Origin: Candidatus Binatia bacterium
Lineage (GTDB): Bacteria; Desulfobacterota; Binatia; UBA9968; JAJDTQ01
Direction: 5' to 3'
Assembly (NCBI GenBank): GCA_963666515.2
Contig: OY762897.2
Coordinates: forward strand, 2,880,001 to 2,944,000
Length of the DNA stretch: 64,000 bases
The translations under genes and the position numbers were made by a program. The notes below the pieces were generated by a model. That model worked only from the letters and a program-made list of their open reading frames with translations. It searched no databases and was not told the DNA's origin. This document shows, piece after piece, positions 1,806 to 10,132 of the stretch. Every line of letters starts with the position of its first letter. Positions within the stretch are counted from its first letter, which is position 1.

Positions 1806-2729
1806 GTGAACGCGCGGCTGGGTCTGCTGCACGCGGTCCTCCTGGCCACGGTCGACCTGAGCACCAAGGTGCCCGCGAGCCACCCGTCGGCGCGAAACCT
1901 GGGCACCGAGAGAATGGGCTCCGGCACCATCGTCGATCCCGCCGGCGCCATCCTGACCGTCAACTACGTCGTCAACGGCGCCGAGGACATCGCCGTGACG
2001 CTGTCGGACGGCAAGCAGTACCCCGGCCGCCTCGCGGCGCAGGACTTCGACACCGGCCTCGCCCTTGTCCGCATAGACGCGGCCGACCTGCCGTTCCTGC
2101 GGCCGGCCGAATCCGTCACCATCGGCCAGCCCGCCTTCATGGTCGCCAGCGCCGGACAGCAGTCCCGGCGGGTCAGCGACGGCAGCGTCACCTCCCTCGA
2201 AGGCTACGACGGACAGTGGGAATACCTGCTCGAACGCTCGATCCGCGTGAGCGCCTTCAATCCGGGCTTCGGCGGAGGCACGCTGGCCGACTCCCGGGGC
2301 CGCCTCATGGGGGTGGTGTCGCTCAACCTGAACGAGATCGGCAAGTTCACGTTGGCGATCCCGGTGGACTACTACCTCCGCGACGCGGACGAACTGCAAC
2401 GGCACGGGCGGGTCCGCAGCCGGCCACCCCGCCCCTGGCTCGGCTTCTACCCCCAGGCTCTCGGGGGCCACGTGCTGATCACCGGGGTCACGCCTTCGGG
2501 GCCGGCGGAGAAGTCGGGCCTGCAACAGGGCGACATCATCCTCACGGTGGAGGGCCAGGAAGTGCAGACCCGGCCCCAGCTCTACCGGGAGATCTGGAAG
2601 AAGCGCGCCGGGGACGTCATCACCTTTCACGTCATCCGGGGAGACGGCTCACTGGACGTCCCGGTGGCCAGCCGTGACCGCTGGGACTTCAACCAGCCCA
2701 ACCCGCTGGGCGGCAAAGCCGACGACTGA
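1806..2729 (+). CDS. HtrA/S1C-like trypsin fold + PDZ protein with degenerate catalytic triad
   Basis: GSGTIV..ILTVNYVV, NPGFGGG and C-terminal PDZ (PWLG...GPAEKSGLQQGDII). Probable GTG start at 1806 after GGAGG. Confidence 0.85.
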   Translation: MNARLGLLHAVLLATVDLSTKVPASHPSARNLGTERMGSGTIVDPAGAILTVNYVVNGAEDIAVTLSDGKQYPGRLAAQDFDTGLALVRIDAADLPFLRPAESVTIGQPAFMVASAGQQSRRVSDGSVTSLEGYDGQWEYLLERSIRVSAFNPGFGGGTLADSRGRLMGVVSLNLNEIGKFTLAIPVDYYLRDADELQRHGRVRSRPPRPWLGFYPQALGGHVLITGVTPSGPAEKSGLQQGDIILTVEGQEVQTRPQLYREIWKKRAGDVITFHVIRGDGSLDVPVASRDRWDFNQPNPLGGKADD

Positions 2730-2754
2730 CCCACGTCCTGTGCGGAGCGGGACC

Positions 2755-3159
2755 GTGAAGAACGTAACCACCTATCGTGTCATCTACGGCGACACGGACC
2801 AGATGGGGGTGGCCTACTACGCCAACTATCTCCGGTGGTTCGAGATCGGCAGGACCGAGTTCATGCGGGAAGCGGGGATTTCCTACGAGCAGGCGGAACG
2901 CGAAGGGTTCTTCTTCCCGGTCACCGAAGCGCAGTGCCGTTACCGCAGGCCGGCCCGTTACGACGACCTGTTGCGCATCGAGACCACTATCGAATCCCTG
3001 AGCCGCGTGGCGCTGAAGTTCCACTACCGGATCGGTCTGGAAGAGGACCGCGTCGCCCTCGCGTCGGGCTGGACGAAACACGCCTGCCTCGACCTGGAGC
3101 GAAAGCTGACCCGGCTGCCGGAACCGTACGCGCGCCGGCTGGGACTCGGCGCGGGGTAG
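2755..3159 (+). CDS. acyl-CoA thioesterase (YbgC/FadM 4HBT family)
   Basis: YRVIYGDTDQMGVAYYANYLRWFEIGRTE signature; start uncertain (GTG at 2740 or 2755). Confidence 0.9.
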   Translation: MKNVTTYRVIYGDTDQMGVAYYANYLRWFEIGRTEFMREAGISYEQAEREGFFFPVTEAQCRYRRPARYDDLLRIETTIESLSRVALKFHYRIGLEEDRVALASGWTKHACLDLERKLTRLPEPYARRLGLGAG

Positions 3160-3171
3160 CGCAAGACGGGG

Positions 3172-4527
3172 TCAGGGAGACGGGGGATCCCAGGTGGGGG
3201 GATCGTCCTCGGCGGCGGGAAGCTCCGTAGGGCAGTAGATGTCCGCCACCTGCCGCAACAGCGCAATGTTGTCGGCGTGGCCGGTCATCCTCGCGGTCAC
3301 CCGGCCGCGCACGGGCCGGCCGAGGAGCGAGAAGTCGCCGACGATGTCCAGGACCTTGTGGCGCGCGAACTCGTCCTCGAACCTCAGGGTGGTGTTGATC
3401 ACCTTCTCGTCGTCGACGATGATGCAGTTGCCGAACCGGCCGCCCTTGATCATGCCCATCCGCTCGAGCTTCTCGAAATCCCGCAGGAAACCGAAGGTCC
3501 GGGCCGGGGCGATCTGCTCCCGGAAAGAATCCGCCCCCTCGTGGACGTAGGTGTATTCCTGCGTTCCCACCGGGCTGGGATAGCGCAGCCGGTAGTGAAC
3601 GGTGAAGCCGTCGGCCGGCTCGATGACGATCTCCTCGTCCCTGTCCCCGGCCACCCGAAGGGTCCGGTCGATGACGATCTCCGGGCGTTCTCCCTGCTGC
3701 TCTTCCACGCCGGCCTCCTCGATCAACCGGCAGAACTCGATGGCGGAACCGTCCATGATGGGAATCTCGCCGTACATCTTGATCAGGAGGTTCGTGACGC
3801 CGTAGGAATGGAGCGCCGCCAGCAGGTGCTCCACCGTCCCCACCACCACGCCGTCCCGCTGCAGCGAAGTGGCGAAATCCGTGGAGCGCACGTAGTCCAG
3901 GTGGGCCGGGACGGTGACGTCGGTGGAGATGCCGCCGAAGTGGATGCCGCTGTTCTCCGGCAAGGGATGCAGGATGACGCCGGTGTTGACGCCCGAATGC
4001 AGCCCGAGGCCGCACGCCACCACGCTTTTCCCGAGGGTCTTCTGCGGCGCGGCGCGGCCGCCGTTGCCGCCGGCGCCGAAGCGGCAGGACGGTTCCGGGA
4101 TACCGCCGCCCGCCGGCGCACCGGGCCCCACCCCGCCGCCGGGAGCTTCTCGCCTCGCGTCCTCGCACGCCCGCTCGATGGCGGCCAGCAAGCCGTCCAG
4201 GGAAAGCGGCTTCTCGATGAAGTCGAAAGCCCCGAGCTGCGTCGCGGCCACCGCGGTGTGGATGCTCCCGTGGCCGGAGATCATGATGACCCGCGCGTCC
4301 GGGTGTTCGCGCCGGATCTGCCTGAGAAGCACGATCCCGTCCATTTCGGGCATCCAGACGTCCAGGAGGATGACGTCCGGCTCCTCCCTCGCCACCAGCT
4401 CCATCACCTCCGACCCATCGGGGGACGCGACCACGCGGTAACCCTCGTCCGTGAGGATCTCCTTCACCGTCTCGCGGATGACGTCCTCATCGTCGACCAC
4501 CAGAACCGTTCTCTGCGCTGGCTGCAT
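3172..4527 (-). CDS. lpxC: N-terminal response-regulator receiver domain fused to UDP-3-O-acyl-GlcNAc deacetylase LpxC
   Basis: REC: VLVVDDE, LLDVWMP, MISGHG, FIEKP. Then a Gly/Pro linker. LpxC: QKTL..GLGLHSG, TVEHLLAAL, EIPIMDGSA, ARTFGF, EFARHKVLDIVGD, GH. ATG at 4527 follows GGAGG. Confidence 0.93.
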   Translation of the reverse strand: MQPAQRTVLVVDDEDVIRETVKEILTDEGYRVVASPDGSEVMELVAREEPDVILLDVWMPEMDGIVLLRQIRREHPDARVIMISGHGSIHTAVAATQLGAFDFIEKPLSLDGLLAAIERACEDARREAPGGGVGPGAPAGGGIPEPSCRFGAGGNGGRAAPQKTLGKSVVACGLGLHSGVNTGVILHPLPENSGIHFGGISTDVTVPAHLDYVRSTDFATSLQRDGVVVGTVEHLLAALHSYGVTNLLIKMYGEIPIMDGSAIEFCRLIEEAGVEEQQGERPEIVIDRTLRVAGDRDEEIVIEPADGFTVHYRLRYPSPVGTQEYTYVHEGADSFREQIAPARTFGFLRDFEKLERMGMIKGGRFGNCIIVDDEKVINTTLRFEDEFARHKVLDIVGDFSLLGRPVRGRVTARMTGHADNIALLRQVADIYCPTELPAAEDDPPTWDPPSP

Positions 4528-4595
4528 GTCTGCTGGATCCTCCATGACCACGTTCGGGGCCGGGGCGCCGGGTGTCCCCTCTCCCCACCCATACA

Positions 4596-6839
4596 CTAGC
4601 TGGTGCGGACCTCCAACGGGTCCGTCTGGGCCGCCACCGGAAACTCGATGATGAAACGCGTGCCGCACGGCTGGTTCGGGCGCACGCGAACGTATCCCCG
4701 GTGATCGGCCACGATGGTCCCGACGATCGACAGGCCGAGTCCGGTGCCGTCCTTCTTGGTGGAGTAGTAGGGCTCGAACACCCGGCCGCGATCCTCCCGG
4801 GCGATGCCCTCACCCTCGTCCGCCACCTCCAGGCGGACCATGCCGAAGGTCTCGTCGAACCGGGTCGCGATCTCCACGCGCCCCTTGCCGTTCACGGACG
4901 CGACGGCGTTGTCGAGCAGATTGAAGATGGCCCGCTTGATCTGCTCCCGGTCCACTTCGACGGGCGGGATCGGGGCCTGCTCCGAGAGGTCGAACTCCAC
5001 TTCACGGTGTCCCTCCTTGAACAGGAACAGCGCCTCGCGGACCACGTCGTTGAGATCGTCCGGCACGAGCTGCGCGGTGGGCAGCCGCGCGAAGTTGGAG
5101 AACTCGTTCACCAGGGTCTTCAGCTCGTCCACCTGCCGGATGATGGTGGACGTGCACTTGTCGAGCACCGCCCCATCGCCGTCCAGGACTTTCTCGTAGC
5201 GCTTGCGCAGACGCTGCGCCGAGAGCTGGATCGGCGTCAACGGGTTCTTGATCTCGTGAGCGATGCGGCGCGCCACCTCGCGCCAGGCCTCCACGCGCTG
5301 CACCTTCAGGACCTCGGTGATGTCCTCCATGAAGAGCATGATGCCGAGCGTGTTGCCGTCGTCGTCCCGAAGGCTGGCGGCTGCGGTCATGAGCGTCAGC
5401 GGCCCGTCGCGGCCCACGATGCGCACGTCGCGCTCCACCCCGGCACTGCCCCTGACCTGCTCGATGACGTCGAGCAGGGGCCGCAGGTTGGGGGCATGCA
5501 GCGTCTCACCGTAGTCCCGGTGGAGCACGTCTCCGGCCCGGATCCCCAACATCATCTCGGCCGCCTTGTTGACGATGGTCACCTTCCCCGACCGGTCCAC
5601 CGAGATCACTCCCGCGGTGATGTTGCCCAGCAGCGTTTCCATGTAACGCCGCCGCTGCTCCAGCTCGGTGTTGGTGTGCTTGAGGTCCGCGGTCATCTGG
5701 TTGAACGACGCCACCAGCGCTCCGATCTCGTCGTCGCCGCCGGCGTCGATGCGATAGTCCAGGTTGCCGTGGGCGACTTCATGCGTGCCTTCCGCGAACT
5801 GCTGGATCGGCACGGTGATGCCTTTGGCCAGGGCGAGCCCGAACCAGGTGGCGAGGAAGATCATCACCAGGGTGATGACCAGCAGGGTCACGACGTAGGC
5901 TTTCTTCACGGGCTCGTTGAGGACCGCCAACTGCTTGTACTCGTCGTACGAGCGGGAGATCTGCTGCGCCTTCTTGCTGATGCTCCTGGGAACGAAGTAG
6001 TCCACCACCACCGCCCCGATGATCCTTCCGCCGTCGCCGTGCACCGGCACCGCCCCCCGCAGCACGTCGCCCTCGCCCAGCGGCTGGGTGCGGTCCACCT
6101 CCAGGCCCCGCAACGCGCTGTTGAGAAAGTCCGCCTGCGGGCTCACGGTGACTCCCGTGGGCACCTGGTCGTTGAAGGCCTTGATCAGCGCGGTCCCGTC
6201 CGGCTTGTAGACCTCCACCGTGCCGAGGTTGTACTCCCGCTGCTTTTCCTCGACGAGACGCTTCAGGCCGTCGAGCTTCTTCGGATCGAGGAGTTTCTCG
6301 TCGCCGATGCGCTGGCCGAGTTGCCGGGCGAAGAAGCGCGCGTTGTCGGCCGAGTTTCGATAGTAGGTCCGGCTGATGTCGACGGAGCCCTTGAGCGCGT
6401 TGACGATCTGCGGATCGAACCACTTGTCCACCGTGTCCACCGCGCGCGTCACGAAACTCCCGGCAATGAAGAACAGCACGACGGTGGGCACCAGCGAGAT
6501 GCCGACGAAGGTGAACACCAGCCGCGCCTGAAGACGGGAGCCGAGGATCCGCCGCCGGCGGTCCAGCACCAGTTTCAGCAGGTTCCGGGAAACCAGGAAG
6601 ACCAGCAGCACCAGCAGGATGAGGTTGACGTTGACCAGCACCAGGAAGGCGACGTTGCTGGTGACGGCGTAGTCCGCGGCGCCGTGCGGCAGGAGATCGT
6701 CGAAGAACGCGAACAGGGCGAACACCAGGACCATCAGGGCGGCGATGACGATCACCCACCGCTCGCGCCTGCGCCGCTTCCGTTCGTCGGATCGAAGCGT
6801 CTCCGCGTCAGCCTTGAGTGCGCTCGTTGGAGTGGCCAA
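4596..6839 (-). CDS. NtrY-like membrane sensor histidine kinase (TM-periplasmic-HAMP-PAS-HisKA-HATPase)
   Basis: AWREVARRIAHEIKNPLTPIQLSAQRL, NLLDNA, FEPYYSTKKDGTGLGL. Probable TTG start at 6839 after GGAGG. Confidence 0.93.
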   Translation of the reverse strand: MATPTSALKADAETLRSDERKRRRRERWVIVIAALMVLVFALFAFFDDLLPHGAADYAVTSNVAFLVLVNVNLILLVLLVFLVSRNLLKLVLDRRRRILGSRLQARLVFTFVGISLVPTVVLFFIAGSFVTRAVDTVDKWFDPQIVNALKGSVDISRTYYRNSADNARFFARQLGQRIGDEKLLDPKKLDGLKRLVEEKQREYNLGTVEVYKPDGTALIKAFNDQVPTGVTVSPQADFLNSALRGLEVDRTQPLGEGDVLRGAVPVHGDGGRIIGAVVVDYFVPRSISKKAQQISRSYDEYKQLAVLNEPVKKAYVVTLLVITLVMIFLATWFGLALAKGITVPIQQFAEGTHEVAHGNLDYRIDAGGDDEIGALVASFNQMTADLKHTNTELEQRRRYMETLLGNITAGVISVDRSGKVTIVNKAAEMMLGIRAGDVLHRDYGETLHAPNLRPLLDVIEQVRGSAGVERDVRIVGRDGPLTLMTAAASLRDDDGNTLGIMLFMEDITEVLKVQRVEAWREVARRIAHEIKNPLTPIQLSAQRLRKRYEKVLDGDGAVLDKCTSTIIRQVDELKTLVNEFSNFARLPTAQLVPDDLNDVVREALFLFKEGHREVEFDLSEQAPIPPVEVDREQIKRAIFNLLDNAVASVNGKGRVEIATRFDETFGMVRLEVADEGEGIAREDRGRVFEPYYSTKKDGTGLGLSIVGTIVADHRGYVRVRPNQPCGTRFIIEFPVAAQTDPLEVRTS

Positions 6840-6956
6840 ACCGGCGTCCTCCCCCAGTTCCGTTCTATCGCTTCCGCCGGTAAAGCACAAAAGAAATGAC
6901 GGCGCTCGCCGGCCCCCGGACATCCGCCGCCAGCGCCGCGGGCGTATCGGGAACCC

Positions 6957-7994
6957 CTACAGCAGCCGCTTCTGCCGTTTCTCCCGGTCCACGCGCGAAG
7001 CGGACTGGGACCGTCCCAGGTGCCGGTAGGCCACCGGCGTGGCGACGCGGCCCTGCGGACGGCGCTCCAGGAAGCCGGCCTGGATGAGGTACGGCTCGTA
7101 GGCGTCCTCGATGGTGCCTCTTTCCTCGCCGATGGCCGCGGCGAGGGTATCCAGTCCCACCGGACCGCCGTCGAACTTGTCGATGATGGTGGCGAGGATG
7201 AGCGTATCCATCTTGTCGCAGCCCTGCTCGTCCACTTCCAGCATCTCCAGGGCCTCGCACGCCACCGGCCGGCTGATCCTTCCATCGCCGTGGACTTCCG
7301 CGTAGTCCCGTACCCGCCGCAGCAGCCGGTTGGCGATGCGCGGCGTGCCGCGGGAGCGGCGGGCGATCTCCATGAAGCCGGCGTCGTCGCCGCCCACGCC
7401 CAGGAGCGCCGCGGACCGGGCGAGCAGCTTCGCCAGCACCTCCGGCTCGTAGAAGTCGAGCCGGAACACCGCGCCGAACCGGTTGCGCAAGGCCGGCGTC
7501 AGCAGGCCGGAGCGGGTGGTGGCGCCAATGAGCGTGAACCGCTTGAGGTCCAGCTTGATGGATCGGGCGCCGGGTCCCTGGCCGATCATGACGTCCACCT
7601 GGAAGTCCTCCATGGCGGGGTACAGCACCTCCTCCACCACGTGGTTGAGGCGGTGTATCTCGTCGATGAACAGGACATCTCCGGCGTCGAGGTTGGTGAG
7701 CAGGGCGGCGAGGTCCCCGGGCCGCTCCACCACCGGGCCGGACGTGGGCCGGATGTCCACCTCCATCTCCCGGGAGATGAGGTGCGCCAGGGAGGTCTTG
7801 CCCAGGCCCGGAGGGCCGTGGAACAGGAGATGGTCCAGCACGTCGCCGCGCCGCTTGGCCGCGGTGATGGCCACGGCGAGGTTCGCCTTGACCTTCTCCT
7901 GGCCGAAGTACTCGCTGAAGCGCCGGGGCCGGAGGCTCGAGTCGTAGAGGACGTCCTCCTCGGTGCCCGCGGGCGAGATGGTCCTGTCTTCCAT
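6957..7994 (-). CDS. ruvB: Holliday junction branch migration helicase RuvB
   Basis: [40 protein letters not shown]. Confidence 0.98.
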
Positions 7995-8024
7995 GAAAGC
8001 GGTTCCGCTGAGCCCGGCGCCCCG

Positions 8025-8609
8025 CTACCGGCTGAGCAGGCGCAAGGCCTCCTTGAGCACCGTTTCCAGCTCGGAGGCCCCCTGGTTCAGTACTTGGCGC
8101 ACGGCCCGCTCCGCATCCGCGCGCCGGTAGCCGAGATTGACCAGCGCCGACAACGCGTCGCCTCGGATGCCGGGGTCGGACGAGATTTCGGGCGCGGTTT
8201 CCGGGAGCGCGTTTATCCTATCACGCAGCTCCACGATCATGCGATCCGCCAGGCGCTTGCCCACCCCCGGAATCGACACCAGACGGGCAACGTCGCCCTC
8301 CCTGAGCGCCTCCAGCAGTTCCCCGGCGGCCATGCCCGACAGGATGTTCAGGGCCAGCCGGGGGCCGATGCCCGATACCCCGGTGAGCAGCACGAAGGCC
8401 TGCTTCTCCGCCGGGTCGAAGAAACCGAACAACTGGAGGGAGTCCTCCCGGACGTGGGTGTACACCAGCAGCGTCACCGGCTCCCCCACCTCGGGCAGCC
8501 GGTAGAACACGCTGAGGGCCGTGAAAAGCTGGTAGCCGACGCCGCCGACGTCGACGATGACCTCGCCCGGCGCCTTGTGATCCAGTATTCCGCGAACCTT
8601 AGCTATCAC
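8025..8609 (-). CDS. ruvA: Holliday junction branch migration protein RuvA
   Basis: MIAKVRG, VGGVGY, HVRED..LFGF, GIGPRLA, ALVNLGY. Confidence 0.97.
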   Translation of the reverse strand: MIAKVRGILDHKAPGEVIVDVGGVGYQLFTALSVFYRLPEVGEPVTLLVYTHVREDSLQLFGFFDPAEKQAFVLLTGVSGIGPRLALNILSGMAAGELLEALREGDVARLVSIPGVGKRLADRMIVELRDRINALPETAPEISSDPGIRGDALSALVNLGYRRADAERAVRQVLNQGASELETVLKEALRLLSR

Positions 8610-9171
8610 GATGAGACCCGGGCGAGAGGGACGGCAGGTCGTCCGCCTGCCAACGCAGGCCCCTCCCCCTCCGGCCCGTCGCGGCCAGGGCGCCGGTGCG
8701 GAAGGCGCGCAGATGGCCGTGGCAGATGGCGGCCGCCAGAGCGTCGGCCGCGTCCTCCTCGGGTTCCTCCGGCAGCCGCAGGATGGCCGTCACCATCTGC
8801 TGCACCTGGCCCTTGTCCGCGTGCCCGTATCCGGTCAACGCCTTCTTCACCTGGACCGCGTTGTACTCCGACACGGCGACTTCGTGTTCCGCCGCGGCCA
8901 GCAGGGCCACCCCGCGCACCTGACCGAGCTTGAGGGCACTCTGGACGTTGCGCGCCAGAAAGACCTTTTCCAGGCTGACGTGTCCGGGCTCGTGTTCCCG
9001 GATGACCTTGGCCAGCTCCGTGAATATGCGGCGGAGGCGCCGGTCCTGGGACTGGTTGGGAGCGGTCCGGACCGTGCCGTGGGCGACGTGTTGCAGGCGG
9101 GTTCCGTCCGCGCGGATCACGCCCCAGCCGGTCTTGAGGGTTCCAGGGTCTATGCCCAGGATGGTTTCGAT
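8599..9171 (-). CDS. ruvC: crossover junction endodeoxyribonuclease RuvC (start codon uncertain, possibly ATC at 9171)
   Basis: ILGIDPG, LGQVRGV, VKKALTGYGHADKGQV, DAADALA. Confidence 0.95.
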   Translation of the reverse strand: METILGIDPGTLKTGWGVIRADGTRLQHVAHGTVRTAPNQSQDRRLRRIFTELAKVIREHEPGHVSLEKVFLARNVQSALKLGQVRGVALLAAAEHEVAVSEYNAVQVKKALTGYGHADKGQVQQMVTAILRLPEEPEEDAADALAAAICHGHLRAFRTGALAATGRRGRGLRWQADDLPSLSPGSHRDS

Positions 9172-9190
9172 CTTTCCTTCTCCGGAGGCG

Positions 9191-9937
9191 TCACCCGGCC
9201 TTCTCGAGGATCTCGTCCGGGATGTCGAAGTTCGCCGCGACGCTCTGAACATCGTCATGGTCTTCCAGGTCCTCGGTGAGGCTGAGGGTCTGCACGGCTT
9301 CCTTCTCGCCGAGCTTCATGGTGTTCTTGGGGATCATGGCGACCTCCGCGGACGCCACGGGGATCTTCCCGTTCTCCAGGCTCTCCCGTACCGCGGCGAA
9401 GTCCTCGGGCTGCGTGATGATCTCGAACACGCCGTCACCCTCGGTGACGTCCTCGGCGCCGGCCTCCAGGGCAACCCCCAGCAACGCTTCCTCGTCCACC
9501 GCTTCCTTGGAGACGACGATGAGGCCCTTGTTGTCGAACATCCACGCCACGCAGCCGGTCTCGCCCAGACTCCCGCCGTGCTTGTTGAACAACCGCCGGA
9601 TGTCCGACACCGTGCGGTTGCGGTTGTCGGTCAGCACCTGCACCAGGAAGGCCGCCCCGCCCGGACCGTAGCCCTCGTAGCTCGTCTCCTCATAGGACAC
9701 CCCTTCCAGCTCGCCGGTGCCCTTCTTGATGGCGCGCTCGATGTTCTCGTTGGGCATGCTGTTTTCGCGGGCGGTCTGCACCGCGGTGCGCAGGCGCGGG
9801 TTGCTCGCCACGTCGCCCCCGCCCATGCGAGCCGCCACCGTGATCTCCTTGATGAACTTGGTGAAGAGCTTGCCCCGCTTGGCGTCCTTGGCTGCCTTCT
9901 TGTGCTTGATGGTGCTCCACTTGGAATGTCCGGACAT
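9191..9937 (-). CDS. yebC: YebC/PmpR family protein
   Basis: [29 protein letters not shown]; the 509-aa track ORF is over-extended. Confidence 0.97.
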
Positions 9938-10132
9938 GACGCGACGCTCTCCTCGGACAGGACTGGCCCCGTGGCCGGGACCGTTTGACCGACTGGGGGA
10001 CACCGAGCGAACCGCGTCCCCGGGTCCCACAATTGGTTTGCCATACGAAAGTACCACAATCGGCACCGGCCCGTAAACGGAACCGTCCGGGACCACCGTC
10101 GTGTCCCCGCTTCCATGCGGCGCGCGTTGCGG

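Follow-up and report, generated by a model that had tools for sequence, protein, structure and literature searches.

Background

In Desulfovibrio vulgaris, lpxC is the single mapped target of the sigma54 regulator DVU2934, which is encoded in an operon with the kinase DVU2931, and in Syntrophobacter fumaroxidans lpxC adjoins the orthologous operon, according to the available part of the study (Rajeev et al. 2011, PMC3333781). In Rhodobacter sphaeroides, the accessible text reports that NtrYX has effects on the envelope and that its deletion raised lpxC mRNA 8.8-fold without an NtrX site at lpxC (PMC7240162), and Brucella abortus NtrX is listed, in the excerpt at hand, among the atypical enhancer-binding proteins with GAFTGA variations (PMC6158489). 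A 2025 review of lipid A regulation, as far as its accessible text goes, presents the effects of NtrYX and ChvGI as transcriptional only, and a word search of that text finds receiver, response regulator, fused and fusion all absent (PMC12444477). Here we describe a locus in a 64,000-nt stretch of contig OY762897.2 from a Candidatus Binatia bacterium (the window, to which all coordinates without a contig name refer), where a gene for a response regulator receiver domain (REC) joined to LpxC follows the gene for an NtrY-like sensor histidine kinase.

LpxC commits the cell to outer-membrane lipid A synthesis. Lipopolysaccharide synthesis is controlled at this enzyme, which has long been a target for antibiotics. 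It is known to be regulated by proteolysis, through FtsH/LapB and others, and in a few alphaproteobacteria indirectly at the level of transcription. CheB and other enzyme-output response regulators consist of a REC domain, a flexible linker and a catalytic domain.

In this work, domain searches, structure prediction, comparative genomics and phylogenetic reconstruction were applied to the REC-LpxC locus. We propose, with a probability of about 0.6, that it encodes a two-gene module in which a membrane kinase with a periplasmic Cache domain would signal to a response regulator that has LpxC as its output, phosphorylation acting on LpxC post-translationally. The first-pass annotation of this DNA, made from the sequence alone, knew of no characterised example, and we likewise found no description of a receiver-LpxC fusion in the literature searched, with subscription journals largely outside coverage.

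Results

An intact receiver and an intact LpxC in one reading frame

The fusion gene lies on the minus strand at 3172..4527 and encodes 451 aa plus a stop, within an uninterrupted open reading frame (ORF) that spans 3172..4668 in the ORF list. The first-pass annotation had read this frame as running without a break from a receiver to LpxC, and the Pfam scan of the fusion protein agrees, with Response_reg (PF00072) matched at 116 bits against a cut-off of 30.2 and LpxC (PF03331) at 277.8 bits against a cut-off of 27, over model positions 1-267 of 268. The ATG at 4527 (MQPAQRT) is most likely the start codon, judging by the Shine-Dalgarno sequence GGAGGA at 4538-4543, 10 nt 5' of it, and by the N-termini of homologues, which agree with this start. 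Two related contigs carry indels of 4 nt and 1 nt at 4551 and 4584, in the minus-strand spacer (4528..4595) between the kinase stop codon (TAG, 4596-4598) and this ATG; these indels break the frame, and the 4528-4595 stretch is therefore non-coding. The alternative frame of 498 aa from GTG 4668 is too long and was ruled out by the homologue N-termini, the indels and the position of the Shine-Dalgarno sequence.

The minus-strand gene is divided into a receiver (residues 7-126, 4150..4509) with the codon of its phospho-acceptor Asp56 at 4360-4362, a disordered linker rich in Gly and Pro (residues 127-160, 4048..4149), the LpxC catalytic domain (residues 161-428, 3244..4047), and a variable Pro-rich C-terminal tail (residues 429-451, 3175..3243). 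The tail has no conservation among homologues and a predicted local distance difference test (pLDDT) score of ~50, and linker residues 127-149 have a pLDDT below 50 in the AF2 monomer model. A Gly/Pro linker had been noted before at ~40 aa; it is present and disordered, with a length of ~35 aa. The predicted template modelling score (pTM) of the monomer, 0.84, is higher than a pair of loosely tethered domains would lead one to expect, but is only a hint toward docking of one on the other.

On the LpxC side, the equivalog model TIGR00325 of NCBIfam is passed across the full domain (258.6 bits, cut-off 187.25), and the domain aligns to the solved LpxC structures 6moo and 4mdt with TVEH, HK.LD and GH all matched. 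Deacetylase activity is predicted from this membership, with the zinc-ligand and catalytic Glu/His roles presumably taken by E233 and H234, by H390, K391 and D394, and by H417. The LpxC-FabZ model NF009667 matches the same part at 212 bits, under its 465-bit cut-off, and the fusion protein has no FabZ part. The receiver, assigned to its family by the PF00072 score and the phospho-site residues, is nearest to NtrX among the NCBIfam models and among structures in the PDB (4d6x and 5m7n, of NtrX and NtrC types), as the earlier label NtrX-like would have it. The NtrX equivalog model NF051870, which the receiver part alone matches at 125.4 bits, is not passed (cut-off 600), and the Pfam scan found no sigma54 AAA+ match (PF00158) in the fusion protein. 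Phosphotransfer to the receiver is predicted from gene linkage.

An alignment of 98 short fusions, down to 44% identity, points to the same residues. In the receiver, D12 and D13 of the DDE-type pocket, D56 (LLDVWMP) and K106 P107 are invariant, and S84 of the SGHG motif is conserved in at least 90%; in LpxC, E233 H234 (TVEH), H390 K391 D394 (HKVLD) and H417 (GH) are invariant. Every motif named in the first-pass annotation is thus found again in the alignment. The linker varies in sequence and in length (19-58 aa). By their motifs and family scores, both halves of the fusion are demonstrably intact and strongly constrained.

The partner kinase and its periplasmic sensor

The kinase gene (4596..6923, minus strand, 775 aa) lies directly upstream of the fusion on the same strand, so that the fusion occupies the regulator's place in a kinase-regulator pair, both as first described. 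Its HAMP, PAS, HisKA and HATPase_c domains score above the Pfam cut-offs, and four transmembrane helices are found at residues 56-74, 93-111, 135-153 and 347-365. The NtrY_N domain (PF19312) reaches 21.6 bits, below the cut-off of 23.2; among nine kinase homologues, five pass (29.3-42.3 bits), one is at 22.6 and three have no match at E up to 0.01. Topology and the remaining domains fit the designation NtrY-type, and the protein appears to belong to an NtrY_N-bearing family.

Between the third and fourth helices, a periplasmic sensor of ~190 aa (residues 154-346, 5886..6464, minus strand) is predicted to adopt a single Cache/PDC fold, in an AF2 model with a pLDDT of 86. The Foldseek matches include the WalK extracellular domain 4ywz (E 1.3e-6, TMt 0.69) and CitA 2j80 (TMt 0.78), and DcuS is also among the closest solved folds; the Pfam match to sCache_3_2 is weak (26.7 bits). 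No other kinase of the source genome has this sensor type.

A real junction and the sole LpxC of the genome

The fusion is the single LpxC match in the source genome (4.67 Mb in two contigs, 98% complete), which answers the earlier call for a search for a second lpxC. Read support across 4040-4180, also called for, was found in Logan contigs that bridge the junction and stem from four runs in three studies: two pieces are identical across 3869/3871-4488, a contig piece from the second study covers 3824-4222 with 11 substitutions and no gap, and a 4.7-kb contig from the third study covers the entire 3103-4750 stretch. An assembly chimera at the junction is ruled out by these independent contigs. 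The linker lacks Met in 73 of the 98 homologues and no Met position in it is conserved; a conserved internal start for a separate LpxC, which had been raised as a way in which the fusion reading might fail, is therefore unlikely.

Conservation and distribution of the fusion

The fusion is not unique to this assembly. Both Pfam domains are present in all 120 best protein-database matches, at 94% to 60% identity, which come from 'Candidatus Binatia' and 'Deltaproteobacteria' metagenome-assembled genomes, and the ESM Atlas holds 17 clusters of at least 50 members with the REC-LpxC architecture. In a locus survey with one genome per species, at least 601 stretches matched, of which 591 encode relatives; the 80 loci kept comprise 64 short REC-LpxC forms, 13 long forms and three frame-split loci, under record titles that include Binatia, Thermodesulfobacteriota, Myxococcota, Acidobacteriota (Thermoanaerobaculia, Holophagae), Nitrospinota and others.

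LpxC is present in every one of 200 genomes sampled evenly across the window's phylum. A full-length fused match was found in 26 of them, including all five sampled genomes of the window's class. A further 21 genomes have a high-identity LpxC in a long frame, and the 14 of these inspected are all fused (seven long forms, and seven short forms with linkers of 51-65 aa). The remaining sampled genomes have an ordinary stand-alone LpxC of ~300 aa at 35-45% identity. At 53 positions conservation reaches 90% or more both among the fused LpxCs and among the stand-alone ones. Thirteen positions are specific to the fusions; one example is Lys250, which is Glu in 86% of the stand-alone enzymes. The fusion is an ancient one, spread widely among Binatia, other Desulfobacterota-like lineages, Acidobacteriota and Nitrospinota.

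In the three frame-split loci (L017, L026 and L053), receiver and LpxC are encoded in separate frames, on ORFs that adjoin or overlap, a situation that may reflect frameshifts, sequencing errors or true splits. Two further fusions, on a 3.2-kb contig titled Promethearchaeota archaeon (L019) and on one titled Enterobacteriaceae (L023), nest among Desulfobacterota-like sequences in the tree; these are probably mis-binned contigs, not evidence for the fusion in those taxa.

Origin from an unfused kinase-activator module dedicated to lpxC

The unfused relatives were studied in a comparison set of 20 stand-alone lpxC loci of the window's phylum. In seven of them lpxC is directly followed by a full-length homologue of the window's kinase (509-610 bits, sensor region included), and in five of these seven a regulator with the layout REC, AAA+ and helix-turn-helix (HTH) lies 3' of the kinase, with Walker A, Walker B and GAFTGA intact. 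Relatives with adjacent lpxC, kinase and regulator, which the first-pass annotation had proposed to look for, thus exist in 5/20 stand-alone loci; this arrangement matches that in S. fumaroxidans, where the available text has lpxC beside the orthologous operon (PMC3333781). Stand-alone loci named as examples are L099, L100, L109, L111 and L115.

The upstream regions of all 20 stand-alone loci (L096-L115) were scanned for sigma54 -24/-12 sites. Ten of the 20 lpxC genes have a site of at least 9/11 in the 150 nt upstream. Only nine sites of at least 10/11 occur in all 432,224 bases scanned, and six of them fall in that small upstream fraction. Near-consensus sites lie, for example, at L106 (11/11) and at L096, L101, L102, L109 and L113 (10/11), from which lpxC would seem to be commonly under sigma54 control in the window's phylum. 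No site of at least 10/11 was found upstream of the 77 kept fused loci or near the window's genes, where matches reach the background level of 9/11 alone.

The long forms of the fusion (~680-760 aa) connect the two arrangements. In the seven scanned, Pfam finds REC, Sigma54_activat (weak, 37-99 bits), AAA_lid_14 and LpxC, with an HTH_8 match in one of the seven. When long forms are aligned with the unfused regulators, Walker A is mostly kept, GAFTGA is absent and the Walker B Glu is lost, and an HTH-like segment is kept in 15 of 20; this AAA+/HTH part occupies the position of the linker in short forms. The best NCBIfam match of the regulator part is NtrX both in the long forms (251-267 bits) and in the unfused module regulators (491-530 bits), in each case under the 600-bit cut-off. 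The receiver of the window's fusion is 52% identical to that of an unfused module regulator, and none of the six other AAA+ activators that the source genome retains, along with rpoN, is as close over the receiver.

We read the ancestral state as a dedicated kinase and sigma54 activator for lpxC. LpxC would then have been appended to the whole regulator, after which the sigma54-contact and ATPase motifs were lost and AAA+/HTH was deleted in several lineages. On the evidence of these alignments, the long fusions with REC, decayed AAA+, HTH and LpxC are intermediates, and the window's fusion, from which AAA+ and HTH are gone, is an end state. The first-pass annotation had the AAA+/HTH output of an NtrX replaced by the enzyme: the loss of AAA+ and HTH holds, whereas the order of events was apparently addition followed by decay, and the ancestor, while best matched by the NtrX model, appears as a true sigma54 activator with GAFTGA, encoded in the order lpxC-kinase-regulator. 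In fused loci the order is kinase-regulator::LpxC, and a tandem duplication of the module could place the regulator gene directly before an lpxC copy. As judged from gene order, motif content and promoter sites, the descent of the fusion from a dedicated lpxC-kinase-sigma54 activator module is demonstrable, and the regulation of lpxC by D. vulgaris DVU2934 fits this origin.

Phylogeny of the fused domains

A careful maximum-likelihood tree of the LpxC domain was built from 78 rows (39 short, 18 long and 21 stand-alone, one of these acidobacterial); the three frame-split loci, two near-identical long forms and another 33 short forms were left out. All fused LpxCs group in a single clade, separated from the stand-alone enzymes with a support of 100/100 and in 200/200 bootstrap trees, and a quick tree of all 112 rows has the same split. 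Short and long forms are interleaved, with 4-5 changes needed on bootstrap trees, and the approximately unbiased (AU) test of a single clade of short forms is borderline (p 0.046). The tree is most simply read as one origin with later spread between phyla, a reading that is not proven, given an outgroup that is thin outside the window's phylum. In a quick tree of the REC domain (125 columns), fused receivers and module regulators stand apart from other regulators (94); this tree neither supports nor opposes a single origin of the fused receivers.

Locus context

A full-length kinase homologue lies directly upstream in 24/36 non-acidobacterial fused loci. The neighbours of acidobacterial fusions vary (a CLC channel, a haloacid dehalogenase (HAD) hydrolase, an Asn synthase), and most of the acidobacterial flanking frames examined have no Pfam match and are probably spurious high-GC frames. 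In the window, frames resembling ruvB, ruvA and ruvC and one of the YebC family, named from their translations by eye, lie upstream of the kinase at 6957-10000 on the minus strand. The ruvB-like stop is 33 nt from the kinase start, and given this gap the kinase and fusion genes may be co-transcribed with the ruv-like genes. On the plus strand, genes for an HtrA-like protease (Trypsin_2 and PDZ, 1617-2729) and a 4HBT thioesterase (2674-3159) run toward the 3' end of the fusion gene; the proximity of a periplasmic protease to an envelope module could be significant or mere coincidence. No tRNA genes and no Rfam families at gathering score were found in the whole 64-kb window.

LapB was also sought in the source genome. 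NF008755 gave tetratricopeptide repeat (TPR) matches of at most 29 bits, none convincing, with the E. coli control itself under the cut-off. A match to PF18073 (Zn_ribbon_LapB, 58.5 bits, C1:4286315-4286398) is the zinc ribbon of RadA, not LapB; this model also matches in Gram-positive control genomes and is unsafe alone as a LapB marker.

Discussion

The proposed module combines parts that are individually familiar. In the layout of REC, flexible linker and catalytic domain the fusion resembles CheB, which serves as a working model for the gating, while its output would be a zinc deacetylase of lipid A synthesis, unlike that of CheB. The kinase would phosphorylate Asp56 of the receiver, and the phosphorylation state of the receiver would then alter the LpxC output after translation. 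The most likely route would be CheB-like: across the flexible tether, the receiver would dock onto the catalytic domain or let go of it. The disordered, length-variable linker makes docking and release, or dimerisation, more plausible than a rigid lever.

Several observations weigh against post-translational gating of LpxC by the kinase. A disordered linker of 19-58 aa makes rigid coupling unlikely, and with 53 conserved positions shared with stand-alone enzymes the LpxC domain looks fully competent alone. The sole LpxC of a cell cannot be simply off by default; control would therefore have to be modulatory, or the kinase would have to signal constantly. In the acidobacterial clade the kinase is upstream in 0/27 loci, and full-length kinase homologues lie elsewhere in 5/5 acidobacterial genomes checked. 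Moreover, three genomes (G034, G199 and G204) hold a fused REC-LpxC as well as a stand-alone lpxC that adjoins the kinase, so the fusion is not everywhere the housekeeping enzyme. In the acidobacterial G204, a complete lpxC-kinase-regulator module (L127) is found beside an orphan REC-LpxC (L071). In G034 (L106, with the fused copy on C11) and G199 (L107 and L094), both of the window's phylum, stand-alone lpxC is followed by the kinase, and no regulator was found beyond it in the 2.5 kb and 1.4 kb examined. These two-copy genomes may be intermediates or may have branched pathways, and bin contamination is possible (~5% for G199). In some lineages the fusion may thus be a second, signal-responsive LpxC, while in the source genome it is the sole one.

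The main rival is that the receiver sets the lifetime of LpxC rather than its rate, phosphorylation exposing or hiding a degradation signal or recruiting a protease, as a counterpart of FtsH/LapB control. Receiver-dependent adaptors of proteolysis exist in RssB and CpdR, and a flexible linker with variable tails would suit a degron or adaptor role. The accessible part of the 2025 review places LpxC under proteolytic control in the organisms studied so far (PMC12444477), and no convincing LapB was found in the source genome, a weak test given the control result. Against these points, the locus has no linked gene for a protease or an adaptor, the sequence offers no degron evidence and the C-terminal tail is unconserved; we consider control of lifetime unlikely, while granting it more weight than any other alternative.

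It is less probable still, and in our view doubtful, that phosphorylation drives receiver dimerisation or recruitment to the membrane or a partner, shifting the site of LpxC action, for example to the vicinity of LpxA/LpxD or of the membrane. Receivers of the NtrX and NtrC types, to which the nearest solved structures belong, dimerise via the alpha4-beta5-alpha5 face, and this face (SGHG..TAV.AT.LGAFDFIEKP) hardly differs between the unfused regulators and the fusions; on the other side, LpxC is a monomeric soluble enzyme.

That the halves are not coupled at all, with the receiver a relic or phosphate sink in a fusion that secures co-expression, or with the junction an assembly error, would agree with a self-sufficient LpxC and a linker predicted to be unstructured, but is very improbable in view of phospho-site residues that are all invariant across at least three phyla, a kinase that stays adjacent in two thirds of the non-acidobacterial loci (24/36), the retention of REC while AAA+/HTH was lost, contigs from three studies that span the junction, and the 73/98 homologues without any linker Met.

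Signalling from the kinase through the receiver to LpxC would also mark a departure from the systems described so far. As in D. vulgaris DVU2931/DVU2934, with which the comparison is by description, not by sequence, a kinase and an NtrC-family regulator appear dedicated to lpxC in the unfused relatives; DVU2934, as the available text presents it (PMC3333781), is a separate DNA-binding sigma54 activator that acts on transcription, unlike the present protein, which has lost AAA+/HTH and has its receiver and the enzyme on one covalent chain. NtrY/NtrX of Brucella, Rhodobacter sphaeroides and Caulobacter is similar in that the kinase topology is NtrY-like and the receiver is nearest to NtrX. NtrX itself, with its REC-AAA+-HTH layout, acts on many genes and on lpxC indirectly, going by the accessible sections of the R. 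sphaeroides study (PMC7240162), and the unfused relatives of the fusion carry GAFTGA, unlike B. abortus NtrX as listed in the excerpt cited above (PMC6158489). With LpxC of enterobacteria under FtsH/LapB control the system shares LpxC as the regulated step, while the proposed input is two-component phosphorylation; and LpxC-FabZ (NF009667) demonstrates that LpxC tolerates fusion partners, with no FabZ part in the present case.

The broader account, to which we give even odds, is that a transcription activator absorbed what it used to regulate: a sigma54 activator devoted to lpxC was joined to LpxC, shed the parts for ATP hydrolysis and DNA binding, and would now act as a phosphorylation-gated switch, a third and undescribed mode of LpxC control in several phyla. 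LpxC would be a new type of output for response regulators, and the fusion is a candidate for a new mode of LpxC control.

If this proposal is true, outer-membrane synthesis would have a direct two-component input that is testable with one purified protein, and response regulators would gain an output class. Taken together, the unfused, long and short forms make up a rare readable case in which fusion of a regulator to its target appears to have shifted control away from transcription and onto the finished protein. The periplasmic sensor of the kinase would provide a handle on the envelope signal that sets lipid A flux in these uncultured lineages.

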